Notes: generated from the sequence alone by a model not told the origin. Positions 17,710 through 57,613 are shown, numbered from the stretch's first letter. The stretch is 64,000 nucleotides of DNA from Candidatus Dormiibacterota bacterium (GCA_036782775.1 DAIPYJ010000007.1:1082-65081), one strand, 5' to 3'. A program made the numbers and translations.

Positions 17710-17744
17710 CGAAGGAAGCCACGGCTTCCTACGTCGTACCTGCC

Positions 17745-24798: not shown

Positions 24799-24842
24799 CA
24801 GCTCTCCAAGCGGAGCAAACGCGTCAACTGCCGCAAACTTGC

Positions 24843-26347: not shown

Positions 26348-26377
26348 GGCTGCCGACCGACGTTACCTGTAACGGTT

Positions 26378-30669: not shown

Positions 30670-30686
30670 GCTATCCGTCCACGCCA

Positions 30687-33371: not shown

Positions 33372-34109
33372 CTACTCCGCCTGGTAGGGTTGCCGCACTT
33401 CCTCGGGGAGCTCGTACCAGCTGATGCGATCGCCGACGCGCGCACGCAGCTTCCATTTCACCGACTTCGGCTGCGCCTCGATCTGCTCCCAGATCGCATC
33501 CAGCCGTTGATTGATCAGGGCGCCGTCGACGGCAAGCTCGGCCGCCGCGGTGCGCACTTTTTGCGTGTTCAGTTGCAGTGTTCGATACAATCCCCAATCC
33601 TCCGCGGTGAGCCGCGCAAGGTATTTCGCATTGATCGCATCGTCGTCATGCTCGGCCACGGCGTGATCGAGGAGAAGGGCGATCGAATCCACGAGGTCCT
33701 TCATGTTGACCTCGTAGACCTGCAGCTTGCTGATCAAGAGGTCGACCGGCGTCAGGGTCGGGCCATCGTGCCCGAGGCGGCCACCGAGCTCAACGACGTG
33801 GCACATCTTCATCCGGTCGATGAAGACGTCGACCTGGCGCCCATTTGCGGCGTCGAGATAGAGCAGGCGTTGATGCCCGTTCAGCAGGTTGAAGCGCGCC
33901 TCGCCTTCGTAACCCAGCGAGTCAAAGAGCTTTTGGACGGCCGGTCGCTGCTTGGCCGGCGCGACGAAATCGAGGTCGCCATACTTGCGCTTCAGCGGCG
34001 GTCGCCGGGCGCTCGGTGAATGCAGGTTGATGGCGGCCCCGCCGACCAGTTTCAAGTGCAGGCCCGCCGCTTTCGCCGCGGCGGCGACACGTTCGCCCTC
34101 GGCGACCAC
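33372..34109 (-). CDS. nucleotidyltransferase-fold protein (hypothetical)
   Basis: LVGGAAINLH...KYGDLDFV matches the minimal hGG...DxD NTase motif. No further assignment is possible. Confidence 0.35.
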   Translation of the reverse strand: MVAEGERVAAAAKAAGLHLKLVGGAAINLHSPSARRPPLKRKYGDLDFVAPAKQRPAVQKLFDSLGYEGEARFNLLNGHQRLLYLDAANGRQVDVFIDRMKMCHVVELGGRLGHDGPTLTPVDLLISKLQVYEVNMKDLVDSIALLLDHAVAEHDDDAINAKYLARLTAEDWGLYRTLQLNTQKVRTAAAELAVDGALINQRLDAIWEQIEAQPKSVKWKLRARVGDRISWYELPEEVRQPYQAE

Positions 34110-34144: not shown

Positions 34145-35614
34145 TCAGCGCTCCTCGACGTCGATGATGATCGTCTTCAGGTCGGTCATCTGCTCGATCG
34201 CGCGGTGGCCGCCGACCCGGCCAATCCCGCTTTCCTTACCGGCGCGGCCACCGAAGGGGATGTGTGCCTCCCAGTAGTTGGATGATTCGTTGACGTTGAC
34301 CCAGCCCGTCTCGAGCCGCTTGGCGAAGCGCAAGGCGCGATCGATATCGCGCGTGTAGACCGACCCAAGCAGGCCGTAGGGTGAGTCGTTCGCAATCTGC
34401 AGCGCATCGGACTCATCAGCAAAAGGAATGATCGGCGCGATCGGCCCGAAGGTCTCTTCCCGGCTGACCCGCATCGCGGGCGACACGTCGCGCAGCACCG
34501 TCGCTTCGTAAAAGAGCCGGGTCGGAAAGCCTTCCGCGCGATGACCGCCGACCACGACCTTCGCGCCGCGTTCAACCGCATCGGCGACGTGCTCGTCCAT
34601 CTTGGTGGCGACGCCCTCGTTGTTGAGCGGGCCCATGGTGGTCTGGTCATCGAAGGGATCGCCAAGCCTGGTTCCGCCGGACAGCGCCTGCTCTAGCTTG
34701 TCGATGAACTCGTCCTGCGCGGCCCGCTGGACCAGGATCCGCTCTCCGGCGGTGCAGCTCTGGCCGGCGCAGAGGAAGCAGCCCGTGATCGTTCCCGCGA
34801 CGGCGCGATCAAGGCTGGCGTCGTCGAAGACGACGATCGGGCCATTGCCTCCGAGCTCGAGCATGACGTGCTTGCCGGCGGCGCGGCTGGCCACCGACCG
34901 GCCGGTCCTAGTCGAGCCGACGAATCCGACGCCGGCAACCAGCGGATGCCCGGCGATTTCGTCGCCGACGACCGGGCCGGGACCGGTGACGAGGTTGATC
35001 GCTCCGGCGGGCAGATCGGCCTCCGCGAAGCATTCCATCAGCTTCACCGAGATGGCAGCGGTCGAGGGCGCCGGCGTCCAGACGACGGTGTTGCCGCCGG
35101 CGAGCGCCGGCGCGATCACCTCGGTCGCCATCGTCAGCGGCCAGTTCCAGGGGGTGATCACGGAGTAGACGCCGCGAGGCACGCGCAGCGTGAAAACCAG
35201 CTTGTTGCGCGCCGCCGAGGGGATGACGTTCGTCTCCAGGCGCCTGATGTCCTCGGCGGCGATCTTGAAGTACTCGATCGCCTCTCCCACCTCGCCCACC
35301 GCCTCTGCCTTGTACGGCTTGCCCTGATCGAGCGTCAGCCAGTGGGCCAGGTCGTCCCGGTGGCGCTCCATGATGTCGGCGATGCGGTGCAGCAACGCGG
35401 CCCGCTCGAAGGCACCGAGCTCAGCCATGGCCGGCCGGGCGCGGTAGGCTTCCTTGACCGCGCGCTCCGCGTCCTCGCGGTTGCCCGTCGGAATGGTGGC
35501 GATCACGTCGCCGCTCGCCGGGCTGGTCGCCTCGAAGGTCTCGCCACTCCGGGAGTCGACCCACTGTCCGCCGATAAACATCTTCATGGTTTGGGTCTTT
35601 TCGACGAGCTTCAT
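34145..35614 (-). CDS. NAD(P)-dependent aldehyde dehydrogenase (betaine-aldehyde dehydrogenase candidate, GbsA-like)
   Basis: ALDH superfamily with catalytic Cys in FLCAGQSCTAG and the Glu motif ELGGNGP. Confidence 0.75.
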   Translation of the reverse strand: MKLVEKTQTMKMFIGGQWVDSRSGETFEATSPASGDVIATIPTGNREDAERAVKEAYRARPAMAELGAFERAALLHRIADIMERHRDDLAHWLTLDQGKPYKAEAVGEVGEAIEYFKIAAEDIRRLETNVIPSAARNKLVFTLRVPRGVYSVITPWNWPLTMATEVIAPALAGGNTVVWTPAPSTAAISVKLMECFAEADLPAGAINLVTGPGPVVGDEIAGHPLVAGVGFVGSTRTGRSVASRAAGKHVMLELGGNGPIVVFDDASLDRAVAGTITGCFLCAGQSCTAGERILVQRAAQDEFIDKLEQALSGGTRLGDPFDDQTTMGPLNNEGVATKMDEHVADAVERGAKVVVGGHRAEGFPTRLFYEATVLRDVSPAMRVSREETFGPIAPIIPFADESDALQIANDSPYGLLGSVYTRDIDRALRFAKRLETGWVNVNESSNYWEAHIPFGGRAGKESGIGRVGGHRAIEQMTDLKTIIIDVEER

Positions 35615-35633
35615 GCCCTGTTACTCAGCCTCC

Positions 35634-37088
35634 TCAGACTCTCGCATGCAGGATCGCATCCTTCCGCACTTCCATAAACGCCTGGAGCTGCTCATCGATT
35701 CCCGAGTCGAGACCGGGATCCGCGTAGTCCTTGAGCAGCTGCTTCCACTTCTCGTTGGCGACCCGGTCCGCGGTGCGGGCGCCCATCCGCTGCCAGCGAT
35801 CATAGTTCTCGGTCGAGGAGATCATGGGCCGGTAGAAGCCGCTTCGGTAATGGCGCATCGTGTGCTCCGAGCCGAGGTGATGACCGCCAGGGCCGACCTC
35901 GCGGATTCCGTCCATGGCGAAGCCTTCCTCGTCGAACGGCATGCCTTTCTCGAGCATCCACTCGAACATGCGCAAGGCCTCGACGTCGATGATGAACTTT
36001 TCGTAGGAGGCCAGCAACGCGCTCTCCAGCCAGCCCGCCGCGTGCAGCACAAAGTGCACGCCGCCGAGCACCGTCGGCCACATGCACATCAGCGACTCGT
36101 AGGCGGCCTGCGCGTCCGGCGCTTTGGAGGAAGTCAGCGCTCCGCCGCCGCGAAATGGAATCTTGTAGTGGCGCGCCATCTGGGCGCTGGCCAGGATGCC
36201 CATCGCCGACTCCGGCGTCCCGAACGCCGGGCTGCCCGACTGCATGTCGACATTGGTGAGAAAGGAGCCGTAGATGCAGGGCGCGCCCGGCCGGATCAGC
36301 TGGATCAGGGCGATCCCGGCCAGCGCTTCGGCGGTCTGCTGCGCCAGCGTGCCGGCGAGGCCCATCGGCGACATCGCGCCCGCCATCAAGAAGGGCGTGA
36401 CGATCGCCGGCTGGCCCGCCGCCGCATATTCCATCAGCGCTCCAAGCATTCGATCGTCGTAGCGCAGCGGGCTGTTGACGTTGATCAGCGCCAGCAGGGC
36501 CGGCGTCTTCTCGATGTTGGCGCGGCCCTTGAAGAGGATGGATGCCATCTCGATCGAATCGCGCGCGTTCTCCTCCGAGATGACGCTCCCCATGAACGGT
36601 TTGTCGGTCCACCGGATGTGCGAGTAGACCATGTCGAGGTGCCGCGTTTCGAGCGGCAGGTCCTCGGGCTCGACGATCGTGCCACCGGCGCAATGCAGCT
36701 GCGGCGTTGCCTGCGCCATCTTGTCGAAGTTGGTGAAGTCGGTGATCGACGGATTGCGCCTCCCACGGTCGAGGTCGGTGATGAACGGCGGTCCGTAGAC
36801 CGGCGCGTTGACCATGTGGTTGCCACCGATCGTGATCGTGTTTTTCGGATTGCGCGCCTGCACCTCGAAGCTCGGCGGCAGCGTTTTGATGGCTTCCTCG
36901 ATGAAGGCCCGGTCGAAACGAACGCGCTGGTCCTCCACCTTCAGGCCGGCGCGGCGATAGATGTCGAGCGCGCGGGGATGGAGGAAGTCGATGCCGATCT
37001 CCTCGAGGATCCCCATCGCGTGGTCGTGAATCTGCTGCACCTGCTCCCGGGAGAGCAGGTCATAGCGGGTCAGCGTATTAGTCCACAT
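35634..37088 (-). CDS. MttB-superfamily methyltransferase without pyrrolysine (quaternary-amine:corrinoid methyltransferase, MtgB-like)
   Basis: 484 aa from the ATG at 37086-37088 (5 nt after the upstream stop). The N-terminus LSREQVQQIHDHAMGILEEIGIDF is typical of the MttB family. The ORF is uninterrupted, with no in-frame amber codon. Confidence 0.7.
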   Translation of the reverse strand: MWTNTLTRYDLLSREQVQQIHDHAMGILEEIGIDFLHPRALDIYRRAGLKVEDQRVRFDRAFIEEAIKTLPPSFEVQARNPKNTITIGGNHMVNAPVYGPPFITDLDRGRRNPSITDFTNFDKMAQATPQLHCAGGTIVEPEDLPLETRHLDMVYSHIRWTDKPFMGSVISEENARDSIEMASILFKGRANIEKTPALLALINVNSPLRYDDRMLGALMEYAAAGQPAIVTPFLMAGAMSPMGLAGTLAQQTAEALAGIALIQLIRPGAPCIYGSFLTNVDMQSGSPAFGTPESAMGILASAQMARHYKIPFRGGGALTSSKAPDAQAAYESLMCMWPTVLGGVHFVLHAAGWLESALLASYEKFIIDVEALRMFEWMLEKGMPFDEEGFAMDGIREVGPGGHHLGSEHTMRHYRSGFYRPMISSTENYDRWQRMGARTADRVANEKWKQLLKDYADPGLDSGIDEQLQAFMEVRKDAILHARV

Positions 37089-37093
37089 GCCGA

Positions 37094-38311
37094 TCAGGAG
37101 CCGGCGTGCGCCAGCTGCCGCGCGACCTTGCGGTGGCGGCCGGCCTCGAAGGCGCGCGCGTAGATCCTTTCGTAGTTCTTGGCATCGACGTCCCGCGGGT
37201 TGCCGATCGTCTGTGAATCTTCCTCGGCTTTCTTGGCGAGCAGTGGAATTTCCTCTTCGGCAAACCCGAGCTCGTTGAGCGACGGGATGTCGAGGTCCTC
37301 GGTGAGCCGGTAGACGTACTCGACGGCGGCCTCGGCCGCCTGCCACATCGTCTTGTTCGTCAGGTCGAGGTTCAGCGCCTGCGCGATGCGGGCGAAGCGC
37401 TCCGGTTCGCCCGAATAGTTGTATTCCATGACCGGTGCCAGCAGCCGCCCGGTGAGCGCCCCATGCGGCGCGTCGTGCACGCCTCCGGCGCTCTGGCTCA
37501 TGGCGTGGGCGGCGCCGGCGGAGTCAGTGCCGTAGGCGAGGCCGGCGAGCATCGCCGCCATGCTCATGTGGTAGCGAGCCTCGAGGTTGTGCCCCTGCGA
37601 GTAGGCAACCCGCAGCCAGCGCGCGCAGTATTCCATCGCGTGCAGCGCGACGGCGTCGGTGAACGGCTGATGGTAGGCCATCGTGTAGCACTCGATGGCG
37701 TGCGTCAACGCGTCCATCCCGGTTCCGGCGGTGACGCCCGACGGCAGATTGACGCTCAGTTGCGGGTCGATCAGCGCCACCCAGGCGGCGATGTTCGGCA
37801 TGCCACCGACGTTGAACTTGATCTTCCGGTCGGGGTCGGTGATGACCGCCCATAGGGTCACCTCACTTCCCGTTCCGGCGGTGGTGGGGACGGCGACCAG
37901 CGGTGGAATGCGCGAATGGATGGGCTGTTTGCCCCACTCGTAGTCGACGATGCTGCCGCCGTGCACGGCGACCACCCCGATCCCCTTGGCGCAGTCGATC
38001 GAGCTCCCGCCGCCGATGGCGACCATCCCGTCGCAGCGCTCGCTCTTGTAATAGGCGGCGCCCGCATCGACCAGCCGGATGGCAGGGTTGGCGCGCACCT
38101 GGTCGTAGGTGACAGGGTCGAGACCGGCGGCGCGAAGCGGCTGGAGTGCTTCCTCGAGCAATCCCGCTTTGACGATGCCCTGGTCGGTGACGACCAGCGG
38201 GCGTTTGACGTTGAGCGCGGCCGTCTCCGAGCCGAGCTGGCCGATCGCGCCGATGGCGTGCGCCATCCGGGTTGGCGATTGGTAGGCCTTCAGGACATTG
38301 TCAAGCACCAA
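37094..38311 (-). CDS. iron-containing (type III) alcohol dehydrogenase (choline dehydrogenase candidate, GbsB-like)
   Basis: Fe-ADH motifs GGGSSIDCAKG and the His cluster HAIECYTMAYHQP...HAM. Confidence 0.75.
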   Translation of the reverse strand: MVLDNVLKAYQSPTRMAHAIGAIGQLGSETAALNVKRPLVVTDQGIVKAGLLEEALQPLRAAGLDPVTYDQVRANPAIRLVDAGAAYYKSERCDGMVAIGGGSSIDCAKGIGVVAVHGGSIVDYEWGKQPIHSRIPPLVAVPTTAGTGSEVTLWAVITDPDRKIKFNVGGMPNIAAWVALIDPQLSVNLPSGVTAGTGMDALTHAIECYTMAYHQPFTDAVALHAMEYCARWLRVAYSQGHNLEARYHMSMAAMLAGLAYGTDSAGAAHAMSQSAGGVHDAPHGALTGRLLAPVMEYNYSGEPERFARIAQALNLDLTNKTMWQAAEAAVEYVYRLTEDLDIPSLNELGFAEEEIPLLAKKAEEDSQTIGNPRDVDAKNYERIYARAFEAGRHRKVARQLAHAGS

Positions 38312-38377
38312 CGAAATTCATCCTCCTTCGATTTGACGCACGGGCGGAGCACTTGCGCTCCGCCCTTTTCTCGACGA

Positions 38378-40009
38378 TTACTCGACTGGAATCTCGCGAT
38401 GGATCGCACGCAGGTCGATGCCTTGCGAGCGACGGTAGAAGAAGGCGCCAACGTAGACGATGAGCGCGAGCGCGTACATCGCTCCGAGGTAGATAAACGA
38501 CTTCGAGTTGTTCAAGCCGTAGGTGGAGTTCGTCAACCAGGCCCACAGGTTGAAGACGAGGAAGATCCCCATGACCGCCGCCGACAGCGTGATCACCGGC
38601 ACGCCGGCGATGCGAAGGTCCCTGATCGGCGAGTTGTTGAAGATATGCGGCCGTCTCCAGGGCAGGATCGCGGAGGCGACGATCGTCCCCAGGTAGGTGA
38701 CGGCGATGACGAGGGTGGCGTCGAGGACCAGGGTGCTGAATCCGTTCAGGTAGGCGTACAGCGCGCTGACCACCAGCGCCGGGACCACCATCAAGAGCAG
38801 CGCGCCGTAGGGGACGCGTCGCTTGGCCGAGATGTTTGCGGCCCACTCCGGGAGCACGCGGTCGAAGGCCGCGGCAAAGATGACGCGAGTCGAGGAGAGG
38901 AAGAGTGTGCCGGACCAGCCCCAGAACCAGACGCTCATGACCGCGAGGAGGACGAACTGGAAAGCGCGGTTGTCGACCAGCCAGCCGGTCAGCATCACCG
39001 GATGCGGCCAGATTGGAATCGGCGCGTTCGGGACCCCGTTGATGTTGTTGTAGAGAGCGGCCTGAAAGAATTCCCAGCCGATCGTCTTGGCGAAGAGCAG
39101 TAGGACCACCGCGGACAGAATGACGGTCGCCCAGAGGCCCCAAAACATGCTGCTGAAGATGCGCCGGTAATCGCGCGTCCCCCGAACTTCGCCATAGAGC
39201 GTGGCCCCCCAGTTGGGCCAGAGCAGATAGAAGAGGAGGAAGGGGACGATGGTCGCGGTTGGGAGCAGGTCAAAGGCATTGAAGCCGGTCTTGCCGTAGC
39301 CCGCCTTGACCGCGACGTCGATCGTCTTCTGATAGACGTCGCCGCTGGTGCCGAAAATGGCGGCCGATTGCTTATTGATGGCTGCCTGCATCGCGTGCTG
39401 GTCGTTGAAGAGCAGCAGCAGCGCCATAACAGCCAGTCCCGCCAGCCCGACGTAGAAACAGAACTTCTGGATGCGGGCGTAGCCTTCCATGCCCATGGTG
39501 ACGTAGACGCTCACGAACGCCAGCACGATCAGGCAGGCGACGAAAAGGCCCGTCCCGGTGCTGGGGCTGAAGAAGGTAGCCCAGTCAGTGCGGCCGATGG
39601 TCGCCGTCAACGGAGCCAGCACCTGCTGGTTGAGGATGCCGGCATAAATCGGCGTCCAGTGCCAGAGGATGAACCACCAGCCCGTCATCGAGAGGACGAA
39701 GGCCGGGCCACCTCCGAGCACGCGGCTCTGCCAGGTGTAATCTCCGCCGGCCCGCGGCATCGCCGCCACCAGGGCCGCATAGGTGATGACCAGGAATGAG
39801 ACGAAGACACCCGTACCAGCCAGGGCAACCAGAACATTGCCGCCGCTGACGGCGCTGATAAACCCGAACGCGCCAAATCCAAGCGCGACGAGGTTGACCG
39901 ACATGAATGAATAGACGAAGGCGTCGAAGCCGGACCACGCCTTGACGAGGCCGGTGGCGTTGCGTAAGAACAGCGTCTGCCGCGGCGGAGCTGCTGTCGT
40001 TGTCGCCAT
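38378..40009 (-). CDS. APC-superfamily permease (candidate choline/quaternary-amine importer)
   Basis: 543 aa with 12-14 TM helices and the amino-acid-permease fold (FDAFVYSFMSVNLVALGFGAF...). Confidence 0.65.
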   Translation of the reverse strand: MATTTAAPPRQTLFLRNATGLVKAWSGFDAFVYSFMSVNLVALGFGAFGFISAVSGGNVLVALAGTGVFVSFLVITYAALVAAMPRAGGDYTWQSRVLGGGPAFVLSMTGWWFILWHWTPIYAGILNQQVLAPLTATIGRTDWATFFSPSTGTGLFVACLIVLAFVSVYVTMGMEGYARIQKFCFYVGLAGLAVMALLLLFNDQHAMQAAINKQSAAIFGTSGDVYQKTIDVAVKAGYGKTGFNAFDLLPTATIVPFLLFYLLWPNWGATLYGEVRGTRDYRRIFSSMFWGLWATVILSAVVLLLFAKTIGWEFFQAALYNNINGVPNAPIPIWPHPVMLTGWLVDNRAFQFVLLAVMSVWFWGWSGTLFLSSTRVIFAAAFDRVLPEWAANISAKRRVPYGALLLMVVPALVVSALYAYLNGFSTLVLDATLVIAVTYLGTIVASAILPWRRPHIFNNSPIRDLRIAGVPVITLSAAVMGIFLVFNLWAWLTNSTYGLNNSKSFIYLGAMYALALIVYVGAFFYRRSQGIDLRAIHREIPVE

Positions 40010-40083: not shown

Positions 40084-41016
40084 CTAGCCGTTGACCAGCT
40101 GGTAGTTCTTGATGCCTTTTTTCTGGTCGAGCTCGATGACTGACGCCAGCAAGAGGCCTTCTTCGTAAGCGCTGCCGGGATTGATGGCCAGGGTTTTTCC
40201 GATACGCGTGATCCCCTTGCCTTCGTGGATGTGGCCGTGGAGCGAAAGCAGCGGCTGGTATTTATCGATCGCCTCGCGAACCGCCATCGAGCCCACATGC
40301 CGGAGCGCCCGGCCGCCGTGCATCGGACGCAGATTCTCATCCAAAGCCGGCGCCTCGTCGAGATTGGTTCCGTAGGGGGGCGGATGAAAGTTGAAGATCG
40401 CGCGGCTCATGTCCTTGATCTCCCGGATCATCGGCTCCATCCGTTTCGTCAGCTCTTCCTCGGGCGCCTCGCGATAGGTGTGCCAGGGTGTTGGATTGGC
40501 CCACCCCGACGCGATCATCTCGTAGCCGCCGATATCGATACACCGTCCCTCCGCCAGCTCAACCCGCTTCGCATTTGCGATGACCTCATCGATCTCGATC
40601 TCGTCATCGTTGCCGGGAGCCACGAAGACACGGATCTTGCTGTCTTTGAGCTTCTCCTCGGCGAGTTGCATCCAGCGCTCGACCGTCTTGCACATCTCTT
40701 CGGTGAAGAGGGTCTGAACCTTCTGCGGATCCTGCTCGAGCTCGGCGACCTGCGCCGACGTCATTCGAACCGGGTAGTAGCCCTTGCGCTGGACCTGAGT
40801 CTCCACATCGGCAACCTCATCGCGATGCACCCGCTGTGAGACGCCGGACAGGGTCAGCTCATAGCTGTCGCCATCCTCGACCAGCGGGATCATGGCTTTG
40901 CCTGTCATGTCGCCGCCGCAGATCAGGACGTCGGCGTTGAAGAACTTTGCGGCATTGAGGAATTTGCGCCAGCAGACCTCCGATCCGTGCAGGTCGGTCG
41001 CGTAGAAAACTCTCAC
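40084..41016 (-). CDS. metallophosphoesterase (calcineurin-like)
   Basis: Shows the pattern MRVFYATDLHGS...GGDMTGK...GNDD...HGHIHEG. Confidence 0.7.
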   Translation of the reverse strand: MRVFYATDLHGSEVCWRKFLNAAKFFNADVLICGGDMTGKAMIPLVEDGDSYELTLSGVSQRVHRDEVADVETQVQRKGYYPVRMTSAQVAELEQDPQKVQTLFTEEMCKTVERWMQLAEEKLKDSKIRVFVAPGNDDEIEIDEVIANAKRVELAEGRCIDIGGYEMIASGWANPTPWHTYREAPEEELTKRMEPMIREIKDMSRAIFNFHPPPYGTNLDEAPALDENLRPMHGGRALRHVGSMAVREAIDKYQPLLSLHGHIHEGKGITRIGKTLAINPGSAYEEGLLLASVIELDQKKGIKNYQLVNG

Positions 41017-41025
41017 CTCTTCCTC

Positions 41026-41673
41026 CTACAGCACTTTCCGAATCGCTTGCTCGAAGCCGCTGACGTGCTGGCGCATCAGCACGGCCGCCCGATCGCCGTC
41101 ACGGGCCACGATCGCCGCCAGCAGCTGGCGATGCTCTTCCACCGCCGCCTTGAGGCGCACCCCCCGGTCGAGCGCGAGGAACCAGATGCGCAGGCTCAGG
41201 TTGAAGTTCTCTTCCAGCATCGTCGTGAGAAAGCTGTTGCGGGTTGCCTGGTAAACCTGCCCGTGGATCTGCTGGTCGAGGCGCATCAGCGTGTGCACGT
41301 CCGAGTCATCGATCGTGTCGAGCTCGGCCATCAGGCTTTCCATCCGAGCCCGCTCGCGGGCGGTGGCGCGCTCGGCGGCCAGGCGCGCGGCACACCCTTC
41401 CAGCTCGATCCGGACTTCGGTCAGCCGGTGCAGGTCGGTGAGGTTGATGTCGCAGACGAAGGTGCCGCGGTGAGGAACGAAGCTGACCAGGTTCTCGTGC
41501 GCGAGACGCTGCAAGGCCTCGCGAATGGGCGTCCGTCCCAATCCGAGCTGCTCGCGCAGGCGGCCCTCCTCGATCACCGAGCCCGGGGCCAGTTGCAAGG
41601 TCACGATCTGATCCCGGATCAACAGGTAGGCTCGCTCGCTCTGCGAGCGTGCGGATGCCGATTGCAGCACGAC
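41026..41673 (-). CDS. GntR-family transcriptional regulator (FadR/FCD subfamily)
   Basis: Winged HTH ...AYLLIRDQIVTLQLAPGSVIEEGRLREQLGLGRTPIREALQRL..., then an FCD domain. A GTG start near 41671 is preferred over the long ORF. Confidence 0.7.
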   Translation of the reverse strand, partial: VVLQSASARSQSERAYLLIRDQIVTLQLAPGSVIEEGRLREQLGLGRTPIREALQRLAHENLVSFVPHRGTFVCDINLTDLHRLTEVRIELEGCAARLAAERATARERARMESLMAELDTIDDSDVHTLMRLDQQIHGQVYQATRNSFLTTMLEENFNLSLRIWFLALDRGVRLKAAVEEHRQLLAAIVARDGDRAAVLMRQHVSGFEQAIRKVL

Positions 41674-41753
41674 CGTGTGCAACGGCGCGCTGGTCGAGCG
41701 CGGCCGCAGCGGACGAGCGGTTCTTAGTTCGCTCGCCAAGGCTTCCCCTCCCT

Positions 41754-41789
41754 TGTATATCGGCCGTACATCACGGATATATCGGCCGT
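41754..41789. promoter_or_regulatory. candidate GntR operator / divergent promoter region
   Basis: Direct repeats ATATCGGCCGT at 41757-41767 and 41779-41789, 22 nt apart. The first is embedded in TGTA-N9-TACA. The region has AT-rich TATAT boxes. Confidence 0.35.
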
Positions 41790-41866
41790 TCCGAACGCTA
41801 GCACGAGGTCGAAGAGTGGTCAAGGACTTTTGTGCGAAAACCGAGGCAGCGTGCTATGAAAGACGA

Positions 41867-42345: not shown

Positions 42346-43302
42346 ATGGCAAGCGTTGAGCGGCTCCGAACGGCGGGCGCTCGACCGTTCCCAGGGAGGC
42401 GGCTTGCCATCCGTCTCGCGCTTGCGATCATCCTCCTTGTGGTGCTGATTTATGCGGCGGTCTCGCTGGGCATGGCCTATCAGCTCACGCTGGGCAACCA
42501 CAAGCCGCTCGGCGCCGACGGCAGCATCGTCGAGACGCCGTTCGAGAACGTCAGCTTCCCAAGCCGAGTCGATGCCATCACCTTGCGTGGCTGGCTCTTC
42601 AGGGCGCCGTCGCTGACCGGGCGAAGCGCGGTCATCGTGCACGGCTTCCGGCAGAACCGGGTGAATGCCGACCTCGATGCCGTCGATCTGAGCAAAAGCC
42701 TGCTGGCGCATGGCTATGACGTCCTGCTCTTCGACCTGCGGTCCTGCGGGACCAGCAGTGGGGACCGGTTCACGCTCGGCACCCTCGAACCGCGGGACCT
42801 GCTTGGCGCCTATGACTTCTTGCTGAGACGGCACTACAGCCCCGGAAAGATGGCGATCATCGGCGACAGCGAGGGAGCCGCGACCGTGATCGGCGCCGCC
42901 AAGGACCTCGGCGCGGTGGGCGCGCTGGTGGCGGATAGCAGCTTTGCCGAGCTCAAGCCGATCATCGACATGCACCTGCCGCAGAACACCAGCCTTCCGC
43001 CGATCTTCTTTCCAGGCGGCGAGATTGCCAGCGAGCTGTTTGGCCTCGATCCGTTCCTGCGGCCGGTGGACGAGATTCGGGCGCTACCCTCGCGAGCCTT
43101 CCTCTTTTTCCATGGAAGCGCCGACGGCTACGTTCCGCTCTCCCATGCCAGAGAACTGAAAGATGCGTCGGCGAATCCAGAGTCAGAGCTGGTGATCGTC
43201 ACCGGAGCTGACCACGTGAAGAGCTACCGGACGAATCCGACTCTCTATCTTGCGAGGCTCTACCAATTCCTCGACCAGCAGATCGCCGAGCGCGGCGGCT
43301 GA
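42346..43302 (+). CDS. membrane-anchored alpha/beta hydrolase
   Basis: N-terminal TM. Nucleophile elbow GDSEG, plus HG (oxyanion) and a C-terminal His. Confidence 0.7.
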   Translation: MASVERLRTAGARPFPGRRLAIRLALAIILLVVLIYAAVSLGMAYQLTLGNHKPLGADGSIVETPFENVSFPSRVDAITLRGWLFRAPSLTGRSAVIVHGFRQNRVNADLDAVDLSKSLLAHGYDVLLFDLRSCGTSSGDRFTLGTLEPRDLLGAYDFLLRRHYSPGKMAIIGDSEGAATVIGAAKDLGAVGALVADSSFAELKPIIDMHLPQNTSLPPIFFPGGEIASELFGLDPFLRPVDEIRALPSRAFLFFHGSADGYVPLSHARELKDASANPESELVIVTGADHVKSYRTNPTLYLARLYQFLDQQIAERGG

Positions 43303-43952: not shown

Positions 43953-44001
43953 TGTTTGCTGAATCTTATCATCCTGCGTCAGCGACCGTACAGATGCGGG
44001 T

Positions 44002-44858: not shown

Positions 44859-47375
44859 ATGGCCAGCCTGCCCTCGCAGGCGCGAGTCGTCGTCATCGGC
44901 GCCGGGATCGTCGGCAACAGCATGGCCTATCACCTGGCGCGCCTCGGCTGGAAGGACCTCGTGCTGATCGACAAGGGCCGCATGCCGAACCCGGGCGGAT
45001 CCACCGGCCATGCCTCGAACTTCATCTTCCTGACCGACCACTCAAAGGAGATGACGCTGTTCACGCTCGACAGCGTCAACCAGTACAAGGAGCTCGGGGT
45101 CTTTACCAGGAGCGGCGGCATCGAGGTCGCCCGCACCGCCGAGCGCGTGGACGAGCTGAAGCGCCGGATGGCGTCCAGCAAGGCCTGGGGGATCGACGCC
45201 TCGCTGGTGACGCCCGCCGAAGTCAAAGAATTGGTTCCCTACATCAACGAGGACATCATCCTTGGCGGCTTCTATACCGAAGGCATCGGCACCGTCGACT
45301 CCTTGCGCGGCGGCACCATCATGCGCGAGCGCGCCGAGCAGATGGGGGCGCTGACCGTGATGCCGCAGACCGAAGTCACCGGCATCACGGTGCAGAACGG
45401 TCGCGTGACAGGCGTGCAGACGGACAAGGGCGAAATTTCGGCCGAGTATGTCGTCATCTCCTGCGGCATCTGGAGTCCGCGGTTGGCGCGGATGGCGGGG
45501 GCATCGATCCCGCTCAGCCCGGCGGTTCATCAGATGATCAGCGTCGGCCCGGTGCCTCTCTTCGCCGATACCGTCGGCGAGATCAAATACCCCATCGTCC
45601 GCGACATGGACACCAACGGCTACGAGCGCCAGCATGGCAGCGACATGGAAGTCGGCTCCTATGACCACCGACCGATCCTCTGGGATCCGGACGACATCCC
45701 GTCGATCGAGCAGTCGAAGCTGTCGCCCACCGAACTGCCCTTCACCAAGGAAGACTTTGACGAATCGCTCGAGCACGCGCTCGAGCTGATGCCCGACATC
45801 CTGGGCGATCCGAATGTTGGCATCCGTCACTCGATCAACGGTCTCCTGTCGCTTACGCCTGACGGCTTTCCCCTGCTGGGCGAAACCGCGGAGGTCAAGG
45901 GCCTCTGGTCGGTAGCGGCGATCTGGATCAAGGAAGCGCCTGGGATCGCGCGCTGCGTCGCCGAATGGATGACGAGCGGCGTGTCCGAGATCGACCCATC
46001 AGGGTCCGATGTTGCGCGCTTTTACGAGCACCAGAAGACGAAGGTCCATGTCAACGGCCGCACCGCCGAAGGCTTCAACAAGACCTACGGCATCGTCCAT
46101 CCACGCGAGCAGTGGGAATCGAATCGTCGGGTTCGGCTCAGCCCCTTCTACGAACGGGAGAAAGCCCTCGGAGCGTTCTTCTTCGAGACCGCCGGCTGGG
46201 AACGGCCGCACTGGTACGAATCGAACAAGAAGCTCCTCGACGAGTACGGCGATCGTGTCATGCCCCGCCGTTACGAGTGGGACGCGCGCTGGTGGTCCCC
46301 GATCATCAACGCCGAGCATCTCGCGATGCGAGACCGGGTCGCGATGGTCGACCTGTCCGCCTTCGCCGTCTTCGACGTCGCCGGCACCTGCGCGCTGGAG
46401 ACGATGCAAAATCTGTGCGTCGTCCAGATGAATGTCCCGGTTGGACGGGTCGTCTATACGTCGCTGCTCAATCCCGCGGCCGGCATCAAGGCCGACCTGA
46501 CCGTGATGCGGCTTGGGATCAATCACTTCCGGGTTGTGACCGGCGGCGCCGACGGCCCGCGGGACAAGAAGTGGTTTCAGGACCACCTGCCGGACGATGG
46601 CGCCGTGCAGCTGACCGACCTGACCAACAGCTGGGCGACGATCGGCGTCTGGGGCCCGCGTGCGCGTGACGTGATCTCGTCGATTACCGACGCCGACGTC
46701 TCGAACGACGGGTTTCCTTTCGGCACCTGTCGCACCATCGACCTTGGCCCGGTGCGGGTGCTCGCCTCGCGTATCTCGTATGTCGGAGAGCTCGGCTGGG
46801 AGATCTACGTGCCCTTCGAACAGGGCGCCCGCGTGTGGGATTCGATCTGGGAGACCGGCCAGCCGCACGGGATCGTTCCCGCCGGCATCGGCGTCTATGG
46901 AACGACCGGGCGAATCGAAAAGTGCTATCGCGCCTACGGATTCGAGCTGGAGCAGGAATTCAACCTGGTCGAGACCGGTCTGGCTCGGCCGCTGGTGAAG
47001 CCGCAGGACTTCATCGGGAAAGATGCCTATCTCAAGCAGCGCGCCGAACCGGCAGCCGCGATTCTGTCTACGCTGACGGTCGACGACAACATCTCGCGCT
47101 CCGGATTCAAGCGCTACATGCAGGGACGGGAACCAGTCCTGGGCCGCGATGGCCAGCGGCTGGTCGACAGGCACGGCCGCGGCTCCTATGTGACGAGCGC
47201 GGGCTCGGGACCGTCGGTCGGAAAGACCATCCTCATGAGCTTCTTGCCCCCGGAGCAGGCGAAAGTCGGCAACAAACTCTGTGTCGAGTATTTCGGCGAC
47301 CAGTATCCGGTGACCGTTGCCGTCGCCGGCCCGACGCCCCTATTCGATCCCCAGAACACCCGCGTCCGAAGTTGA
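44859..47375 (+). CDS. dimethylglycine/sarcosine dehydrogenase-family enzyme (FAD DAO domain plus folate-binding GcvT domain)
   Basis: 838 aa. N-terminal VVVIGAGIVGNSMAYHLA, then a C-terminal aminomethyltransferase folate-binding domain. Confidence 0.8.
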   Translation: MASLPSQARVVVIGAGIVGNSMAYHLARLGWKDLVLIDKGRMPNPGGSTGHASNFIFLTDHSKEMTLFTLDSVNQYKELGVFTRSGGIEVARTAERVDELKRRMASSKAWGIDASLVTPAEVKELVPYINEDIILGGFYTEGIGTVDSLRGGTIMRERAEQMGALTVMPQTEVTGITVQNGRVTGVQTDKGEISAEYVVISCGIWSPRLARMAGASIPLSPAVHQMISVGPVPLFADTVGEIKYPIVRDMDTNGYERQHGSDMEVGSYDHRPILWDPDDIPSIEQSKLSPTELPFTKEDFDESLEHALELMPDILGDPNVGIRHSINGLLSLTPDGFPLLGETAEVKGLWSVAAIWIKEAPGIARCVAEWMTSGVSEIDPSGSDVARFYEHQKTKVHVNGRTAEGFNKTYGIVHPREQWESNRRVRLSPFYEREKALGAFFFETAGWERPHWYESNKKLLDEYGDRVMPRRYEWDARWWSPIINAEHLAMRDRVAMVDLSAFAVFDVAGTCALETMQNLCVVQMNVPVGRVVYTSLLNPAAGIKADLTVMRLGINHFRVVTGGADGPRDKKWFQDHLPDDGAVQLTDLTNSWATIGVWGPRARDVISSITDADVSNDGFPFGTCRTIDLGPVRVLASRISYVGELGWEIYVPFEQGARVWDSIWETGQPHGIVPAGIGVYGTTGRIEKCYRAYGFELEQEFNLVETGLARPLVKPQDFIGKDAYLKQRAEPAAAILSTLTVDDNISRSGFKRYMQGREPVLGRDGQRLVDRHGRGSYVTSAGSGPSVGKTILMSFLPPEQAKVGNKLCVEYFGDQYPVTVAVAGPTPLFDPQNTRVRS

Positions 47376-47388
47376 GCCAACTCACTTT

Positions 47389-47414
47389 TCCCTCCCCCCG
47401 CATGCGGGGGGAGG
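47389..47414. repeat. perfect 26-nt palindrome CCCTCCCCCCGCATGCGGGGGGAGGG between the DMGDH and etfB genes
   Basis: Visible directly in the sequence. It belongs to the same family as the element at 15231-15257. Confidence 0.8.
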
Positions 47415-47430
47415 GTCAGGGTGGGGGGCT

Positions 47431-51108: not shown

Positions 51109-51912
51109 ATGAGCACCAGTTTTGCTATGCGCAACAAGGTGCAATCACTGGACCGGGCCCTGGAGATCTTGAAGCTGCTCGGCAGCGAGCCCGAAATGCG
51201 GGTGACCGATCTCGCGCGGCGTCTGGAGGTCCACAAATCGACCGTTTTCCGGCTGCTGGCCACCCTTCAGGAGCATGGGTTGGTCGAGCAGAACCCTTCA
51301 ACCGAGCGCTATCGGCTTGGCTACGGACTGGTCCGGCTCGCCGGGTCTGTGGTTGCGGAACTGGATCTGGCGCGCGCCTCTCGCCCGGTGCTCGAAGAGC
51401 TCGCCGCCCGCACCGGGGAAACGGTGAACCTTGCGATTTTGCAGGGCGATCAGGTCATCAACATCGAACAGATCGCCGCGCCGAACCTGGTGGTCAACGT
51501 CAACTGGGTCGGGAAACAGACGCCGCTGCATGCCACCTCGAACGGGAAAGTTCTGCTCGCGCACCTCGGCGCGGAGGAGCGCCGCCGTTTATTGGGCCGG
51601 TCGCTGCCTCGCCTCACGCCGCGGACGATCACCGATCCCAGGGTGCTCGAGAAGCAGCTGGCGCGCGTGCTCGATGACGGCTATGCCTTCACCCTCGAAG
51701 AGCTCGAACTGGGCTTGAATGCGGTCGCCGCTCCGGTGTTTGCGCCCGACGGCCGGGTGCTGGCGGCGGTGAGCGTCGCGGGCCCCTCCTACCGGGTCAC
51801 GCCACACCGGCTCACCGAGCTGGGAGAAACGACGAAAGAGGCAGGCGAGGCGATCTCGCGTCGACTCGGGTACATCCCACGCGGGGAATCCCCGCGAACC
51901 CTGACAGTCTGA
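51109..51912 (+). CDS. IclR-family transcriptional regulator
   Basis: N-terminal HTH (LDRALEILKLLGSEPEMRVTDLARRLEVHKSTVFRLLATL) with a C-terminal IclR effector domain. Confidence 0.8.
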   Translation: MSTSFAMRNKVQSLDRALEILKLLGSEPEMRVTDLARRLEVHKSTVFRLLATLQEHGLVEQNPSTERYRLGYGLVRLAGSVVAELDLARASRPVLEELAARTGETVNLAILQGDQVINIEQIAAPNLVVNVNWVGKQTPLHATSNGKVLLAHLGAEERRRLLGRSLPRLTPRTITDPRVLEKQLARVLDDGYAFTLEELELGLNAVAAPVFAPDGRVLAAVSVAGPSYRVTPHRLTELGETTKEAGEAISRRLGYIPRGESPRTLTV

Positions 51913-51928: not shown

Positions 51929-52645
51929 ATGAGTCGCGAGGAGGAGATTCGGCAGGAGCTGTTCGATCACACGCTGAACGGTCATGCGCCCGAGGTCAAG
52001 GCGCTGACGCAGGAAGCCTTGCAGCTGGGGATGGATCCGATGGACATCCTCTTCAAGGCGCTGATCCCATCGTTGGAAGAGGTCGGACGCCGTTTCGAGA
52101 AGGGCGACTTCTTCGTTCCCGAGATGCTGATCGCCGCGCGGGCGATGCAGGGCGCGCTGGTCATCCTGCGACCCCTGATCGCGGAAACCGGTGCCAAGCC
52201 GATCGGAAAGATCGTGATCGGGACGGTCAAGGGTGACATCCACGACATCGGCAAGAACCTGGTGATCATCATGCTCGAGGGCGCCGGTTTCGAAGTCGTC
52301 GACCTCGGCGTCAACTGCCCGCCCGAGAAATTCGTCGAGGCCGTGCGCGCCAACGAGCCCCACATCGTTGGCTTCTCCGCCTTCCTCACCACGACCATGC
52401 CGATGTTCAAGGTCAACATCCAGGCGCTCGAGAAAGCCGGACTCAGGGACAAAGTTGTCGTCATGGTCGGCGGCGCCCCGGTCACCGAGGAATACGCCAA
52501 GCTGGCGGGGGCGGATCACTATTCGCCGGATGCTTCGATCGCCACCCGGACCGCGAAACAGATCGTGGGCGCGGCGCAGGCCGCCGAAAATGCGGCCTTG
52601 ACCCAGGCGGTCGAGCTCATCGATAAGACGCTGCGGAAGGGCTAA
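51929..52645 (+). CDS. cobalamin-binding corrinoid protein of a methyltransferase system (MtgC/MtbC-like)
   Basis: B12-binding cap helix domain, then a Rossmann domain with the DxHxxG motif (GDIHDIGKNLV). Confidence 0.75.
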   Translation: MSREEEIRQELFDHTLNGHAPEVKALTQEALQLGMDPMDILFKALIPSLEEVGRRFEKGDFFVPEMLIAARAMQGALVILRPLIAETGAKPIGKIVIGTVKGDIHDIGKNLVIIMLEGAGFEVVDLGVNCPPEKFVEAVRANEPHIVGFSAFLTTTMPMFKVNIQALEKAGLRDKVVVMVGGAPVTEEYAKLAGADHYSPDASIATRTAKQIVGAAQAAENAALTQAVELIDKTLRKG

Positions 52646-52648
52646 GCC

Positions 52649-53023: not shown

Positions 53024-53984
53024 CCGCCTCGCCGATTTGCTGCATGACGGTCAGTTCGTCGTCACGGCCGAACTCACCTCCAGCGACAGTGCCGATCCCG
53101 AGGTGGTTGCCCGCAACGGCGAGATGCTGCGCGGCGTCGTCGACGCCATCAACTGCACCGACAACACTGGCGCCCATGTCCACCTCTCGGCGATCGCCGC
53201 CGCTCACCTGCTGGTGGAGCGCGGCATCGAACCGATCATGCAGGTGACAGTCCGCGATCGGAATCGCCTCGCGCTGCAGGCAGACCTGTTGGGTGCGGCC
53301 GCCCTCGGTGTTCGCAACATCGTCGTGATGAGCGGGGACGATGTGACCGCCGGCGACCATCCCGATGCCCGGCGGATCTACGACATCGACTCAATGCAGT
53401 TGATCGAGGTCGCAGCCGGCATGCGCGACCGCGCCGTCTATCTGAGCGGTCGCAAGCTTGGCCAGCCGCCGGCATTCTTCATCGGCGCCGTCGAGAACCC
53501 ATTTGCGCCGCCGCTCGAATTCCGTCCGTTGCGGTTGCAGAAAAAGGTCCGGGCTGGAGCGCAGTTCATCCAGACGCAGCTGGTCTTTGACGTGCCCATC
53601 TTCACCCGCTTCATGCGGATGGTCGACGACCTCGGCCTGCTCGACCAGGTCTTCATCATCCCGTCGATTGGGATCCCGCGTTCCGCTCGTGGGGCGCGCT
53701 TCATGAAGGAGAAGGTCCCGGGGTTACATGTGCCTGATGCCGTAATTGACCGGATGGAGAGGACGCCGCCAGCGCGGCAGGCGGAGGAAGGGATCGCGAT
53801 TGCCGTCGAGCTGGTCAGCGAGATTCGGCAGATCCGCGGCATCGCGGGGGTGCATCTGATCGGCATCAAATGGGAGGAAGGCGTCGCTCGGGTCGCCGAG
53901 GCCGCCGGCCTCCTGCCACGTCCAACCCATGAACCGCTTCCTTTTCCCTCCCCCGCTCGCGGCGGCGGACAGGGAAGGGGCTAA
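53010..53984 (+). CDS. metF: 5,10-methylenetetrahydrofolate reductase
   Basis: Shows the MTHFR TIM-barrel pattern (...NCTDNTGAHVH..., FIQTQLVFD). The 3' end runs through a CCCTCCCC/GGGAAGGGG-like low-complexity element. Confidence 0.75.
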   Translation: MRATSRLADLLHDGQFVVTAELTSSDSADPEVVARNGEMLRGVVDAINCTDNTGAHVHLSAIAAAHLLVERGIEPIMQVTVRDRNRLALQADLLGAAALGVRNIVVMSGDDVTAGDHPDARRIYDIDSMQLIEVAAGMRDRAVYLSGRKLGQPPAFFIGAVENPFAPPLEFRPLRLQKKVRAGAQFIQTQLVFDVPIFTRFMRMVDDLGLLDQVFIIPSIGIPRSARGARFMKEKVPGLHVPDAVIDRMERTPPARQAEEGIAIAVELVSEIRQIRGIAGVHLIGIKWEEGVARVAEAAGLLPRPTHEPLPFPSPARGGGQGRG

Positions 53985-54907
53985 TGGAAACGACGCTCCG
54001 CTCCCGCTCGAAGGAGGTTGTGATCTCGATCGATCGGCCCTTCGTGATGATCGGTGAGCGAATCAACCCAACCGGCCGCAAGGTGCTCGCCGCCGAAATG
54101 AAGCTGGGCCGGATGGATCGGGTCAAGGCTGATGCGATTGCGCAGGTCGAAGCCGGCGCGCAGATGCTGGATGTCAACGCGGGTGTGCCCGGCATCGACG
54201 AGCCGGCGCTGCTGGTCGCGGCGATTCGCGCCGTGGGTGAGGTGACCGATGTGCCGCTCTGCATCGACTCATCCGTGATCGAGGCGCTGGAGGCTGCCCT
54301 CGCCGTCTACGAGGGCAAGGCGCTGGTGAACTCGGTGACGGCCGAAGGCGAGCGAATGGACCGCATCCTGCCCCTGGTGAAGAAATACGGCGCGGCGGTC
54401 ATCGGCATGAGCAACGACGAGACAGGCATCACCATGGTTCCGCAGGAGCGGGTCGAGATCGCGCGTCGCATCATCGAGCGCGCCAAGTATTACGGCATTC
54501 CCCAGGAAGACGTCGTCATCGATCCGATCGCGATGACCGTCGCCGCGGATCCGCAGGCCGGTCTGATCACGCTGGAGACCATGCGCCTCATCAAGGAACA
54601 GCTCGGGAACAACATGACCTGCGGTGCCTCGAACGTCTCGTTCGGGCTGCCGGAGCGGCATCTGCTGAACGCCGCCTTCTTCCCGGTGGCGATGCACGCC
54701 GGCTTGAGCTGCGCCATCACCAATCCGTTAGTGCCCGAGGTGCGAAAGGCGGTGCTGGCTTCCGACCTCCTGCTGGGCCACGACGAGTACGCCATGCGGT
54801 GGATTTCCGATTTCCGCACCGAGCAGAAGAAAAGAGCCTCCCTCCCTGACCCTCCTCCCGCTACGCAGGGAGAGGGAATTGGAAGGCTGGCGGTCAAGCC
54901 GGGATGA
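53984..54907 (+). CDS. pterin-binding methyltransferase (methylcorrinoid:tetrahydrofolate methyltransferase, MtgA/AcsE-like)
   Basis: DHPS-like pterin-binding barrel (INPTGRK..., NSVTAEGERM, CGASNVSFGLPER). Confidence 0.7.
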   Translation: METTLRSRSKEVVISIDRPFVMIGERINPTGRKVLAAEMKLGRMDRVKADAIAQVEAGAQMLDVNAGVPGIDEPALLVAAIRAVGEVTDVPLCIDSSVIEALEAALAVYEGKALVNSVTAEGERMDRILPLVKKYGAAVIGMSNDETGITMVPQERVEIARRIIERAKYYGIPQEDVVIDPIAMTVAADPQAGLITLETMRLIKEQLGNNMTCGASNVSFGLPERHLLNAAFFPVAMHAGLSCAITNPLVPEVRKAVLASDLLLGHDEYAMRWISDFRTEQKKRASLPDPPPATQGEGIGRLAVKPG

Positions 54908-57320: not shown

Positions 57321-57613
57321 TGGCGACCTATCAGGTCATGTTCTGGAAGCACATCCCCGCGCAGATCAAAGCCTGGGACGAGCAGGGAGAGGTCAAGCGC
57401 ATGCTGCCTGATCGATTTCAGGCCGCCATCGATGCCTACGCCATGAAGGATGGCTCGACGGATATGGACAGCTACCTCGAGGCGTGGCGATGGAGCGAGC
57501 CGCAGCAGCGAGCTGGATCGGCAGAGGAGGTGGCCGGCGTGCTGGTCAACGAGCTCGATCGCGACAACCCACGGTCGAAGCTGATGAATCCATCGGCGGA
57601 GGAGGGACGATGA
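57317..57613 (+). CDS. small hypothetical protein (98 aa) coupled between the DUF1638 gene and fhs
   Basis: ORF with overlapping stop/start at both ends and no recognised domain. Confidence 0.35.
   Translation: MMATYQVMFWKHIPAQIKAWDEQGEVKRMLPDRFQAAIDAYAMKDGSTDMDSYLEAWRWSEPQQRAGSAEEVAGVLVNELDRDNPRSKLMNPSAEEGR

Follow-up and report, generated by a model that had tools for sequence, protein, structure and literature searches.

A predicted choline-to-dimethylglycine gene cluster with an MtgB-like methyltransferase in Candidatus Dormibacterota

The minus-strand gene run

We analysed a 64,000-nucleotide stretch of DNA from a Candidatus Dormiibacterota bacterium (GCA_036782775.1 DAIPYJ010000007.1:1082-65081), referred to here as the window, in which an earlier sequence-only reading had proposed an operon for the conversion of choline to dimethylglycine. 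The four genes concerned encode an APC-superfamily permease, a type-III iron-dependent alcohol dehydrogenase (Fe-ADH), an MttB-superfamily methyltransferase and an aldehyde dehydrogenase (ALDH). Their order, coordinates and tight spacing on the minus strand were as proposed (Table 1), and none of the four open reading frames (ORFs) contains an internal stop. The MttB gene does begin 5 nt past the Fe-ADH stop codon (TGA at 37096-37094, ATG at 37088, spacer tcggc), and profile searches with PF06253, PF00465 and PF00171 gave strong matches for all three enzymes. While the four genes are real, the run is longer than had been listed and comprises seven co-directional genes, from a GntR/FCD-family regulator to a gene for a nucleotidyltransferase-fold protein. 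All gaps within it measure 5-74 nt (GntR to metallophosphoesterase, 9 nt; metallophosphoesterase to APC, 74 nt; APC to Fe-ADH, 66 nt; Fe-ADH to MttB, 5 nt; MttB to ALDH, 19 nt; ALDH to the nucleotidyltransferase-fold gene, 35 nt).

Table 1. Genes of the minus-strand run and of the proposed partner clusters in the window.
Feature	Position	Strand	Basis
GntR/FCD-family transcriptional regulator, heads cluster	41026..41823	-	PF00392 + PF07729; position kept in relatives
Cytoplasmic calcineurin-type metallophosphoesterase	40084..41016	-	weak PF14582/PF00149 matches
APC-superfamily permease, 543 aa, proposed choline importer by context	38378..40009	-	PF13520, 67 bits
Type-III Fe-alcohol dehydrogenase, GbsB-type, 405 aa	37094..38311	-	PF00465 + PF25137
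Non-pyrrolysine MttB-superfamily methyltransferase, MtgB-like, 484 aa	35634..37088	-	PF06253, 660.6 bits
NAD(P)-dependent aldehyde dehydrogenase, 489 aa, proposed betaine-aldehyde dehydrogenase by context only	34145..35614	-	PF00171, 514 bits
Pol-beta-fold nucleotidyltransferase-like protein, last gene of run	33372..34109	-	weak PF14907 match
Dimethylglycine oxidase/dehydrogenase homologue	44859..47375	+	DAO + FAO_M + GCV_T + GCV_T_C
ETF beta	47317-48204	+	PF01012
ETF alpha	48201-49184	+	PF00766
IclR-family regulator, heads corrinoid cluster	51109..51912	+	PF09339 + PF01614
Corrinoid (B12-binding) protein, MtgC-like	51929..52645	+	PF02607 + PF02310
MetV-like zinc-ribbon protein	52646-53023	+	PF12225
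MetF methylene-THF reductase	53010-53984	+	PF02219
Pterin-binding methyl-corrinoid:THF methyltransferase, MtgA/MtgD-like	53984..54907	+	PF00809; NF005719, 312 bits vs. cutoff 259
RACo/RamA-type reductive activase of corrinoid proteins	54904-56730	+	Fer2 + RACo linker, middle and C-terminal domains
DUF1638 protein	56727-57320	+	PF07796
Formate-tetrahydrofolate ligase	57484..59286	+	PF01268, 777 bits

The Fe-ADH gene starts with TTG, and a ribosome-binding site (AAGGAGGA) lies 9 nt ahead of it. Its product passes the cutoff of the NCBIfam equivalog model 'choline dehydrogenase GbsB' (NF053866; 577.6 vs. 550 bits), the next model being ErcA with 333 bits, so that the GbsB-like assignment made earlier is borne out. 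For the APC permease no NCBIfam model passed, and choline import by this protein is proposed from its context. A literature search on gbsB together with mttB gave no match.

A GC-rich stem-loop with a 9-bp stem (GGGCGGAGC...GCTCCGCCC) was found at 38342..38365, in the spacer between the APC and Fe-ADH genes. Hairpins are also present in the equivalent spacer of four related loci (L004, L015, L033 and L035), with stem sequences that differ and complementarity that is kept. Since the stem-loop is not followed by a U-run on the coding strand, it may act in processing, stability or attenuation and not as a full terminator. An Rfam scan of the whole window returned no family at gathering score, and thus no cobalamin, glycine or tetrahydrofolate (THF) riboswitch, and a sigma-70 promoter scan of 33-45 kb showed no excess over shuffled sequence.

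Two further products of the run are conserved. The AlphaFold2 model of the metallophosphoesterase (pLDDT 91) has as its nearest structures aq_1956 and TT1561, both uncharacterised, and a sequence search of the Protein Data Bank found aq_1956 alone (E 0.004); the fold search confirmed a calcineurin-like fold and gave no functional match. The protein is 79-91% identical across all orthologous loci and 50% identical in a cluster of Acididesulfobacillus acetoxydans described below, and it is a candidate phosphocholine or phosphodiester hydrolase. The model of the nucleotidyltransferase-like protein (pLDDT 80) is nearest to MenT1 and to ANT(2'')/LnuA-type folds, at modest TM-scores of 0.4-0.5, and its gene is kept in relatives and in A. 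acetoxydans. Both genes travel with the ADH, MttB, ALDH and APC genes in Dormibacterota and also in the A. acetoxydans locus L080 (9019-9948 and 4998-5642). Another phosphoesterase is encoded 30 kb off the operon, at 4391-5425 on the minus strand, by a gene with a PF04185 'Phosphoesterase family' match. Phospholipase C and acid phosphatases belong to this family, and the protein might release phosphocholine from phosphatidylcholine.

The MttB-family protein and its putative corrinoid partners

The PF06253 match covers profile positions 25-498 of 500 and thereby essentially the full-length domain of the MttB superfamily (PF06253/COG5598). The window protein is 49% identical over its full length to MtgB of Desulfitobacterium hafniense (DhMtgB; 2qne/9yce; 486 bits, E 6e-145) and 48% identical to the Sinorhizobium meliloti structure 4YYC (480 bits), a structure for which a literature search gave no match. 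Pyrrolysine-containing MttB matched with only 143 bits (E 1e-40), and the corresponding NCBIfam equivalog with 315 bits, under its cutoff of 525. The pyrrolysine (X) of MttB structure 7xcl aligns with L318, encoded by CTG, and the 484-codon ORF carries no in-frame amber codon. We therefore rejected the reading as a pyrrolysine-containing trimethylamine methyltransferase; the non-pyrrolysine assignment of the sequence-only reading was correct.

The betaine-binding residues of DhMtgB, established by a betaine-bound structure and mutagenesis, are Y97, R312, H348 and F356 (PMC13080624). Three of these four contacts are kept in the window protein (Y98, R313 and H349). The position of F356 is taken by A357, and a tryptophan, W353, stands four residues earlier, just as in 4YYC. 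A survey of the two aromatic positions in 117 diverse MttB family members from a 50%-identity representative library (DhMtgB numbering) found an aromatic residue at 352 only in 39/117, at 356 only in 50/117, at neither position in 28/117 and at both in 0/117, a mutual exclusivity with a Fisher value of 4e-13 that is uncorrected for phylogeny. The position-352 type mostly has Trp, within the motif AGWLExGL, and the position-356 type has Phe or Tyr, within the motif AGILxxF/Y. This pattern suggests two alternative placements of the cation-pi residue, of which W353 would be the relocated one. In an identity ranking of the 50%-identity clusters, which like the tree discussed below took in no MtcB, MtpB, MtyB, MthB or Phaeobacter inhibens MtgB1 sequences, DhMtgB came among the first three or four. 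We infer that the window MttB acts on glycine betaine as an MtgB-like corrinoid methyltransferase.

A full set of predicted partners of such an enzyme is encoded on the plus strand (Table 1). The corrinoid protein and the electron-transfer flavoprotein (ETF) genes noted earlier are both real, and the MttB gene and the corrinoid gene each occur once in the window. The best NCBIfam model for the corrinoid protein is 'glycine betaine-specific corrinoid protein MtgC' (195 bits, under the cutoff of 370), and its His-ligand motif, DIHDIG, occupies residues 103-108. The MetV-like and MetF proteins are 46-63% identical to their counterparts in clusters of S. meliloti and Paracoccus. In the aerobic MtgBCD system, MtgC and MtgD are also used by the homocysteine methyltransferase MtgE, as a split methionine synthase (PMC12478193). 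MtgE/homocysteine methyltransferase (PF02574), which could be elsewhere in the genome, was not found among the window ORFs scanned, so that the window shows no clear tie to methionine synthesis.

The predicted product of 44859..47375 matches N,N-dimethylglycine oxidase of Arthrobacter globiformis over its full length (1pj5; 572 bits over residues 6-837) and mammalian DMGDH with about 320 bits; by this full-length architecture it is a dimethylglycine oxidase/dehydrogenase homologue. Near the end of the window, a monomeric DAO-family oxidase (61766-62881, minus strand) adjoins an S-adenosylmethionine-dependent methyltransferase (62976-63725, plus strand). In NCBIfam, this oxidase comes closest to N-methyltryptophan oxidase and to monomeric sarcosine oxidase, in each case under the cutoff, and it possibly provides a sarcosine-oxidising step.

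Three genes part the choline operon from the DMGDH/ETF genes. They encode an alpha/beta hydrolase (42346-43302, plus strand), a protein with a CheB-type methylesterase domain (43308-44177, minus strand) and a Crp/cNMP-binding regulator (44002-44751, plus strand), and are missing in relatives such as L001, where both clusters abut. Elsewhere the window is dense in cyclic di-GMP-type signalling proteins (HD-GYP + GAF + GGDEF, and a response regulator with HD-GYP; 15277-18755, 26348-27232 and 30624-32864). Beside them, at 19502-26108, lies a block resembling type IV pilus or type II secretion genes, with a PilM-like protein, T2SSF, two to three T2SSE ATPases and a prepilin.

Conservation, the proposed pathway and its alternatives

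The closest proteins (<=95% identity) originate from soil metagenomes and from metagenome-assembled genomes (MAGs) that carry the label Candidatus Dormibacterota or, where the record is older, 'Chloroflexi'. Synteny was assessed by tblastn of the window proteins against 83 loci. Clade A comprises 35 species-representative Dormibacterota loci with an MttB 80-91% identical to that of the window, and clade B comprises 22 loci (L037-L058), also L079 and L082, with 74-77% identity. The Fe-ADH gene is immediately upstream of the MttB gene in 33/35 clade A loci, the remaining two of which begin at a contig edge. The ALDH gene follows MttB directly in 18 of the 35 and after one inserted DMGDH-like gene in another 13, and in many of these loci the operon includes one or two DMGDH/SARDH-like genes. 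The corrinoid cluster is divergently adjacent to the operon or its GntR gene in L001, L004, L033-L035 and L059, which indicates that the two halves form one unit; in the window, other genes spanning about 9 kb come between them. Beyond the phylum, six of the gene families cluster in the Firmicute A. acetoxydans (L080, NZ_CDGJ01000132.1), beside an OpuA-type betaine ABC transporter.

Judged by this synteny, the gene arrangement around MttB is not chance. That the four genes are mere neighbours without a common pathway would fit the conserved hairpin between permease and ADH and the corrinoid genes 14.8 kb off. We regard it as very improbable, given the gaps of 5-74 nt, an adjacency held in 33/35 species genomes, and gene families that have been re-assembled in another order in another phylum.

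The sequence-only reading had described the MttB gene as inserted between the two dehydrogenase genes, and two kinds of relatives support this. The MttB gene of clade B stands beside the DUF1638, RACo, MT2, corrinoid and IclR genes instead of choline-oxidation genes, with the W/A motif unchanged; mtgB thus has two alternative homes in this lineage. Locus L084 contains GntR, metallophosphoesterase, APC, Fe-ADH, ALDH, nucleotidyltransferase, DMGDH and ETF genes and no MttB between ADH and ALDH, and its ADH-ALDH pair would, as expected, form a self-standing choline-to-betaine unit. In L085, only a 68-aa MttB fragment (10119-10325) follows the Fe-ADH, possibly a remnant left by decay of the inserted gene. 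Three loci with an MttB 76-88% identical to that of the window and unchanged synteny (L010, L017 and L041) come from MAGs labelled Candidatus Binatus, Candidatus Acidoferrum and Verrucomicrobiia; these are probably mis-binned Dormibacterota contigs and not cases of transfer.

From these data we propose, with a probability of roughly 0.7, that the genes encode a route from choline via glycine betaine to dimethylglycine in which demethylation is corrinoid-dependent. The region from 33.4 to 59.3 kb would then be a choline/glycine-betaine catabolic island of about 26 kb, with the operon as its choline-entry arm. Choline would enter through the APC permease and be oxidised to betaine aldehyde by the GbsB-type Fe-ADH, and the ALDH would convert betaine aldehyde to glycine betaine. 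The MtgB-like MttB would move one N-methyl group from glycine betaine to the Co(I) form of the corrinoid protein at 51929-52645 and leave dimethylglycine. The methyl group would pass from the corrinoid to THF via the pterin-binding methyltransferase, MetV/MetF would oxidise methyl-THF to methylene-THF, and formate-THF ligase would finish C1 oxidation. Inactive Co(II) would be re-reduced by the RACo activase (with DUF1638). Finally, the dimethylglycine oxidase/dehydrogenase homologue would demethylate dimethylglycine, with electrons flowing to ETF and on to respiration. Prior oxidation of choline yields an acidic quaternary amine of the kind bound by the Arg/His pair of the superfamily, which would explain the position of mtgB between the dehydrogenase genes.

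The pathway is well supported by what homology and deep cross-phylum synteny imply. Of the operon proposed at the outset, the GbsB-type ADH and the non-pyrrolysine MttB stand, the latter with glycine betaine as its predicted substrate; the GbsA-like label and the supposed rarity are not supported.

Several observations weigh against the pathway. The betaine-aldehyde role of the ALDH is its weak link and is proposed from context only. The protein scores far below both betaine-aldehyde dehydrogenase (BADH) equivalog cutoffs (TIGR01804 and NF009725; 389 vs. 669 and 372 vs. 593 bits), and its best solved relative is the succinate-semialdehyde dehydrogenase (SSADH) GabD of Escherichia coli (3jz4; 372 bits), with BADHs at about 300 bits. 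A strict SSADH reading was also set aside, because the ALDH carries Leu at the Arg position of the GabD motif FRNAGQTC, an Arg that we take to bind the substrate carboxylate.

In the methyltransferase, the fourth betaine contact is replaced by Ala, and the exchange F356L in DhMtgB raises Km several hundred-fold (PMC13080624); that the Trp of the window protein substitutes for F356 is a hypothesis. Furthermore, 49% identity does not fix substrate specificity within the MttB superfamily, where MtyB and MtcB are 53% identical yet differ in their preferred substrates (PMC8604678). A neighbour-joining tree of the 117 members places the window protein in the Trp-type group with weak bootstrap values (9-41%), and with deep nodes so weakly supported the tree cannot assign a substrate. 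In the window, a distance of 14.8 kb separates mtgB from the corrinoid gene. Lastly, the conserved metallophosphoesterase and nucleotidyltransferase-fold protein play no part in the proposed scheme, and 25/35 clade A loci carry a gene of the choline/ethanolamine-kinase family (PF01633) directly before the ADH gene, for which the scheme has no need.

The MttB substrate could instead be another acidic quaternary amine, such as proline betaine, carnitine, gamma-butyrobetaine or an uncharacterised soil osmolyte, with the ADH and ALDH serving another alcohol/aldehyde pair in a mixed osmolyte-catabolism locus. Members of the superfamily can differ in specificity when they are about 50% identical (PMC8604678), the F356 contact is not kept, and the ALDH is not assignable to BADH. 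Genomes with this system often hold several MttB paralogues with uncharacterised substrates (PMC12478193), and a second Dormibacterota MttB clade exists at 74-77% identity. Nevertheless, we consider this alternative unlikely in view of the GbsB equivalog match and of a Y/R/H triad and relocated Trp identical to those of the S. meliloti protein, which is encoded beside a betaine transporter and bmt. Moreover, dimethylglycine oxidase/DMGDH homologues are found inside or beside the operon in most relatives, and an OpuA-type betaine transporter adjoins the A. acetoxydans module.

The kinase genes of the relatives bear on a second alternative. They belong to a two-gene cassette, present in most relatives and absent from the window, that combines the PF01633 kinase with a second DAO/GCV_T enzyme (L005 4059-7383, L007 5332-8677 and L084 4010-7277). 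The latter is 33% identical to the DMGDH-like protein of the window, and the best NCBIfam match of the kinase is guanitoxin kinase GntI, sub-cutoff. Choline might accordingly be phosphorylated first; MttB would demethylate phosphocholine to dimethylaminoethanol phosphate, the metallophosphoesterase would dephosphorylate it to dimethylaminoethanol, and Fe-ADH and ALDH would then oxidise this to dimethylglycine for DMGDH/ETF. This route uses every gene, gives the phosphoesterase a role and explains the place of MttB between ADH and ALDH. It has a precedent in MthB of Eubacterium limosum, which acts only on phosphocholine from the adjacent kinase MthK (PMC12155760). It also agrees with the kinase-family gene immediately upstream of ADH in 25 of the 35 orthologous loci, with a Pkinase-family gene in the L085 neighbourhood and with a cytoplasmic metallophosphoesterase kept in every version of the module.

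However, the 64-kb window has no kinase homologue, although its MttB is 91% identical to that of the kinase-bearing L005, and the A. acetoxydans cluster, whose MttB has the full MtgB motif, is likewise without a kinase. The ADH is above the GbsB choline-dehydrogenase equivalog cutoff, and the MttB keeps Y98, whereas the aromatic pair is reported to be non-conserved in MthB (PMC13080624). The nearest sequence neighbours of the window protein are of the DhMtgB and S. meliloti MtgB types, and choline-expressed MttB-family proteins of Eubacterium maltosivorans are <=30% identical to MthB (PMC12155760). A phosphocholine route therefore appears quite unlikely to us.

The cross-phylum module as a whole, often joined by a choline-kinase-family gene, might also process a phosphorylated or nucleotidylated choline derivative rather than follow a simple line from choline via betaine to dimethylglycine, a possibility to which we give little weight. 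The metallophosphoesterase and nucleotidyltransferase could then make or remove the activating group, and the system could be an aerobic MthB-like counterpart in which demethylation comes first and ADH and ALDH turn dimethylaminoethanol into dimethylglycine.

Significance and comparison with known systems

Candidatus Dormibacterota are abundant in soil, have no cultured representative and are thought to respire aerobically (PMC10608941). The sequence-only reading had regarded its combination of functions as unusual for an aerobe, which did not prove correct, as homologous systems are known in the aerobes Ruegeria pomeroyi and P. inhibens. Betaine demethylation by MtgBCD with RamA, DUF1638 and MetF2 was demonstrated in aerobic R. 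pomeroyi in 2025 (PMC12478193), and a P. inhibens mutant lacking both mtgB1 and gbcAB does not grow on betaine (bioRxiv 10.64898/2025.12.19.695462). Aerobic cobalamin-dependent betaine demethylation is thus already known, and the window represents no new kind of system.

The predicted system takes the recently described cobalamin-dependent betaine demethylation of aerobes beyond marine and rhizobial Proteobacteria and into a terrestrial phylum. The conserved and apparently complete route from choline to C1 oxidation and ETF predicts choline and glycine betaine as growth substrates as well as a cobalamin requirement, and could guide enrichment and isotope-probing work on Dormibacterota. A further outcome is a testable variant of the active site, its aromatic residue shifted from 356 to 352, and two conserved enzymes of the module stand out as having no assigned role, the metallophosphoesterase and the nucleotidyltransferase-fold protein.

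One close comparison is with the aerobic alphaproteobacterial MtgBCD(E) systems. Where aligned, the 4YYC sequence occurs letter for letter within a protein encoded in an S. meliloti cluster that comprises a cobalamin-binding protein, DUF1638, MetV, MetF, an MT2 methyltransferase and an ASKHA activase, with bmt and a betaine ABC transporter nearby. This cluster matches the MtgBCDE cluster described in PMC12478193, and a Paracoccus methylovorus plasmid holds the same type of component set. Seven components are common to these systems and the window (MtgB, MtgC, MtgD, the RamA/ASKHA activase, DUF1638, MetF2 and a MetV-like protein). Compared with the cluster proteins of S. meliloti and Paracoccus, the window components show 33-63% identity, which marks the window system as homologous to the MtgBCD machinery known from aerobes. 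The Trp-352/small-356 active-site type is shared by the window MttB and 4YYC, a tie to dimethylglycine demethylation genes is common to both, and the window host is likewise presumed to be aerobic (PMC10608941).

The differences begin with the host, which belongs to a different, uncultured phylum, the Dormibacterota. The window uses a GbsB-type Fe-ADH for choline oxidation instead of BetA/BetB, and its mtgB is embedded between choline-oxidation genes and not located beside mtgC. No PF02574 MtgE is present among the window ORFs scanned, whereas metallophosphoesterase and nucleotidyltransferase-fold genes are additional and the regulators are of the GntR/FCD and IclR families.

With the anaerobic MtgB/MtgC/MtgA system of D. 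hafniense, the window shares the residues corresponding to Y97, R312 and H348, a Leu at the pyrrolysine position and the three-component logic with an activase. It differs in Ala for F356 with Trp at 352, in a probably aerobic host, and in the proposed further oxidation of dimethylglycine via the dimethylglycine oxidase/DMGDH homologue and ETF. As in GbsAB of Bacillus subtilis, an Fe-ADH that passes the GbsB model is encoded in one operon with an ALDH. In contrast to B. subtilis, this ALDH is no GbsA/BADH equivalog, a GbsR-type regulator is absent, an APC permease takes the place of OpuB/OpuC, and betaine would be a catabolic intermediate rather than the end-product osmoprotectant.

The MthK/MthB/MthC/MthA system of E. 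limosum (PMC12155760) likewise has an MttB-family enzyme that acts on a choline-derived substrate together with corrinoid protein, THF methyltransferase and activase. A kinase-family gene is adjacent in many Dormibacterota relatives and lacking in the window, which in turn has ADH and ALDH and whose MttB keeps the MtgB-type Tyr.

The A. acetoxydans cluster shares its gene families with the window at identities of 56% (Fe-ADH), 50% (metallophosphoesterase), 44% (APC), 42% (MttB), 38% (nucleotidyltransferase-fold protein) and 37% (ALDH), and also holds DUF1638 and MT2. The species description of A. acetoxydans makes no mention of choline or betaine. This strict anaerobe differs in its gene order and in carrying an aldehyde:ferredoxin oxidoreductase and the OpuA transporter, and its MttB is of the DhMtgB type (Ile352/Tyr356), with the full motif of Y/R/H and an aromatic residue at 356.

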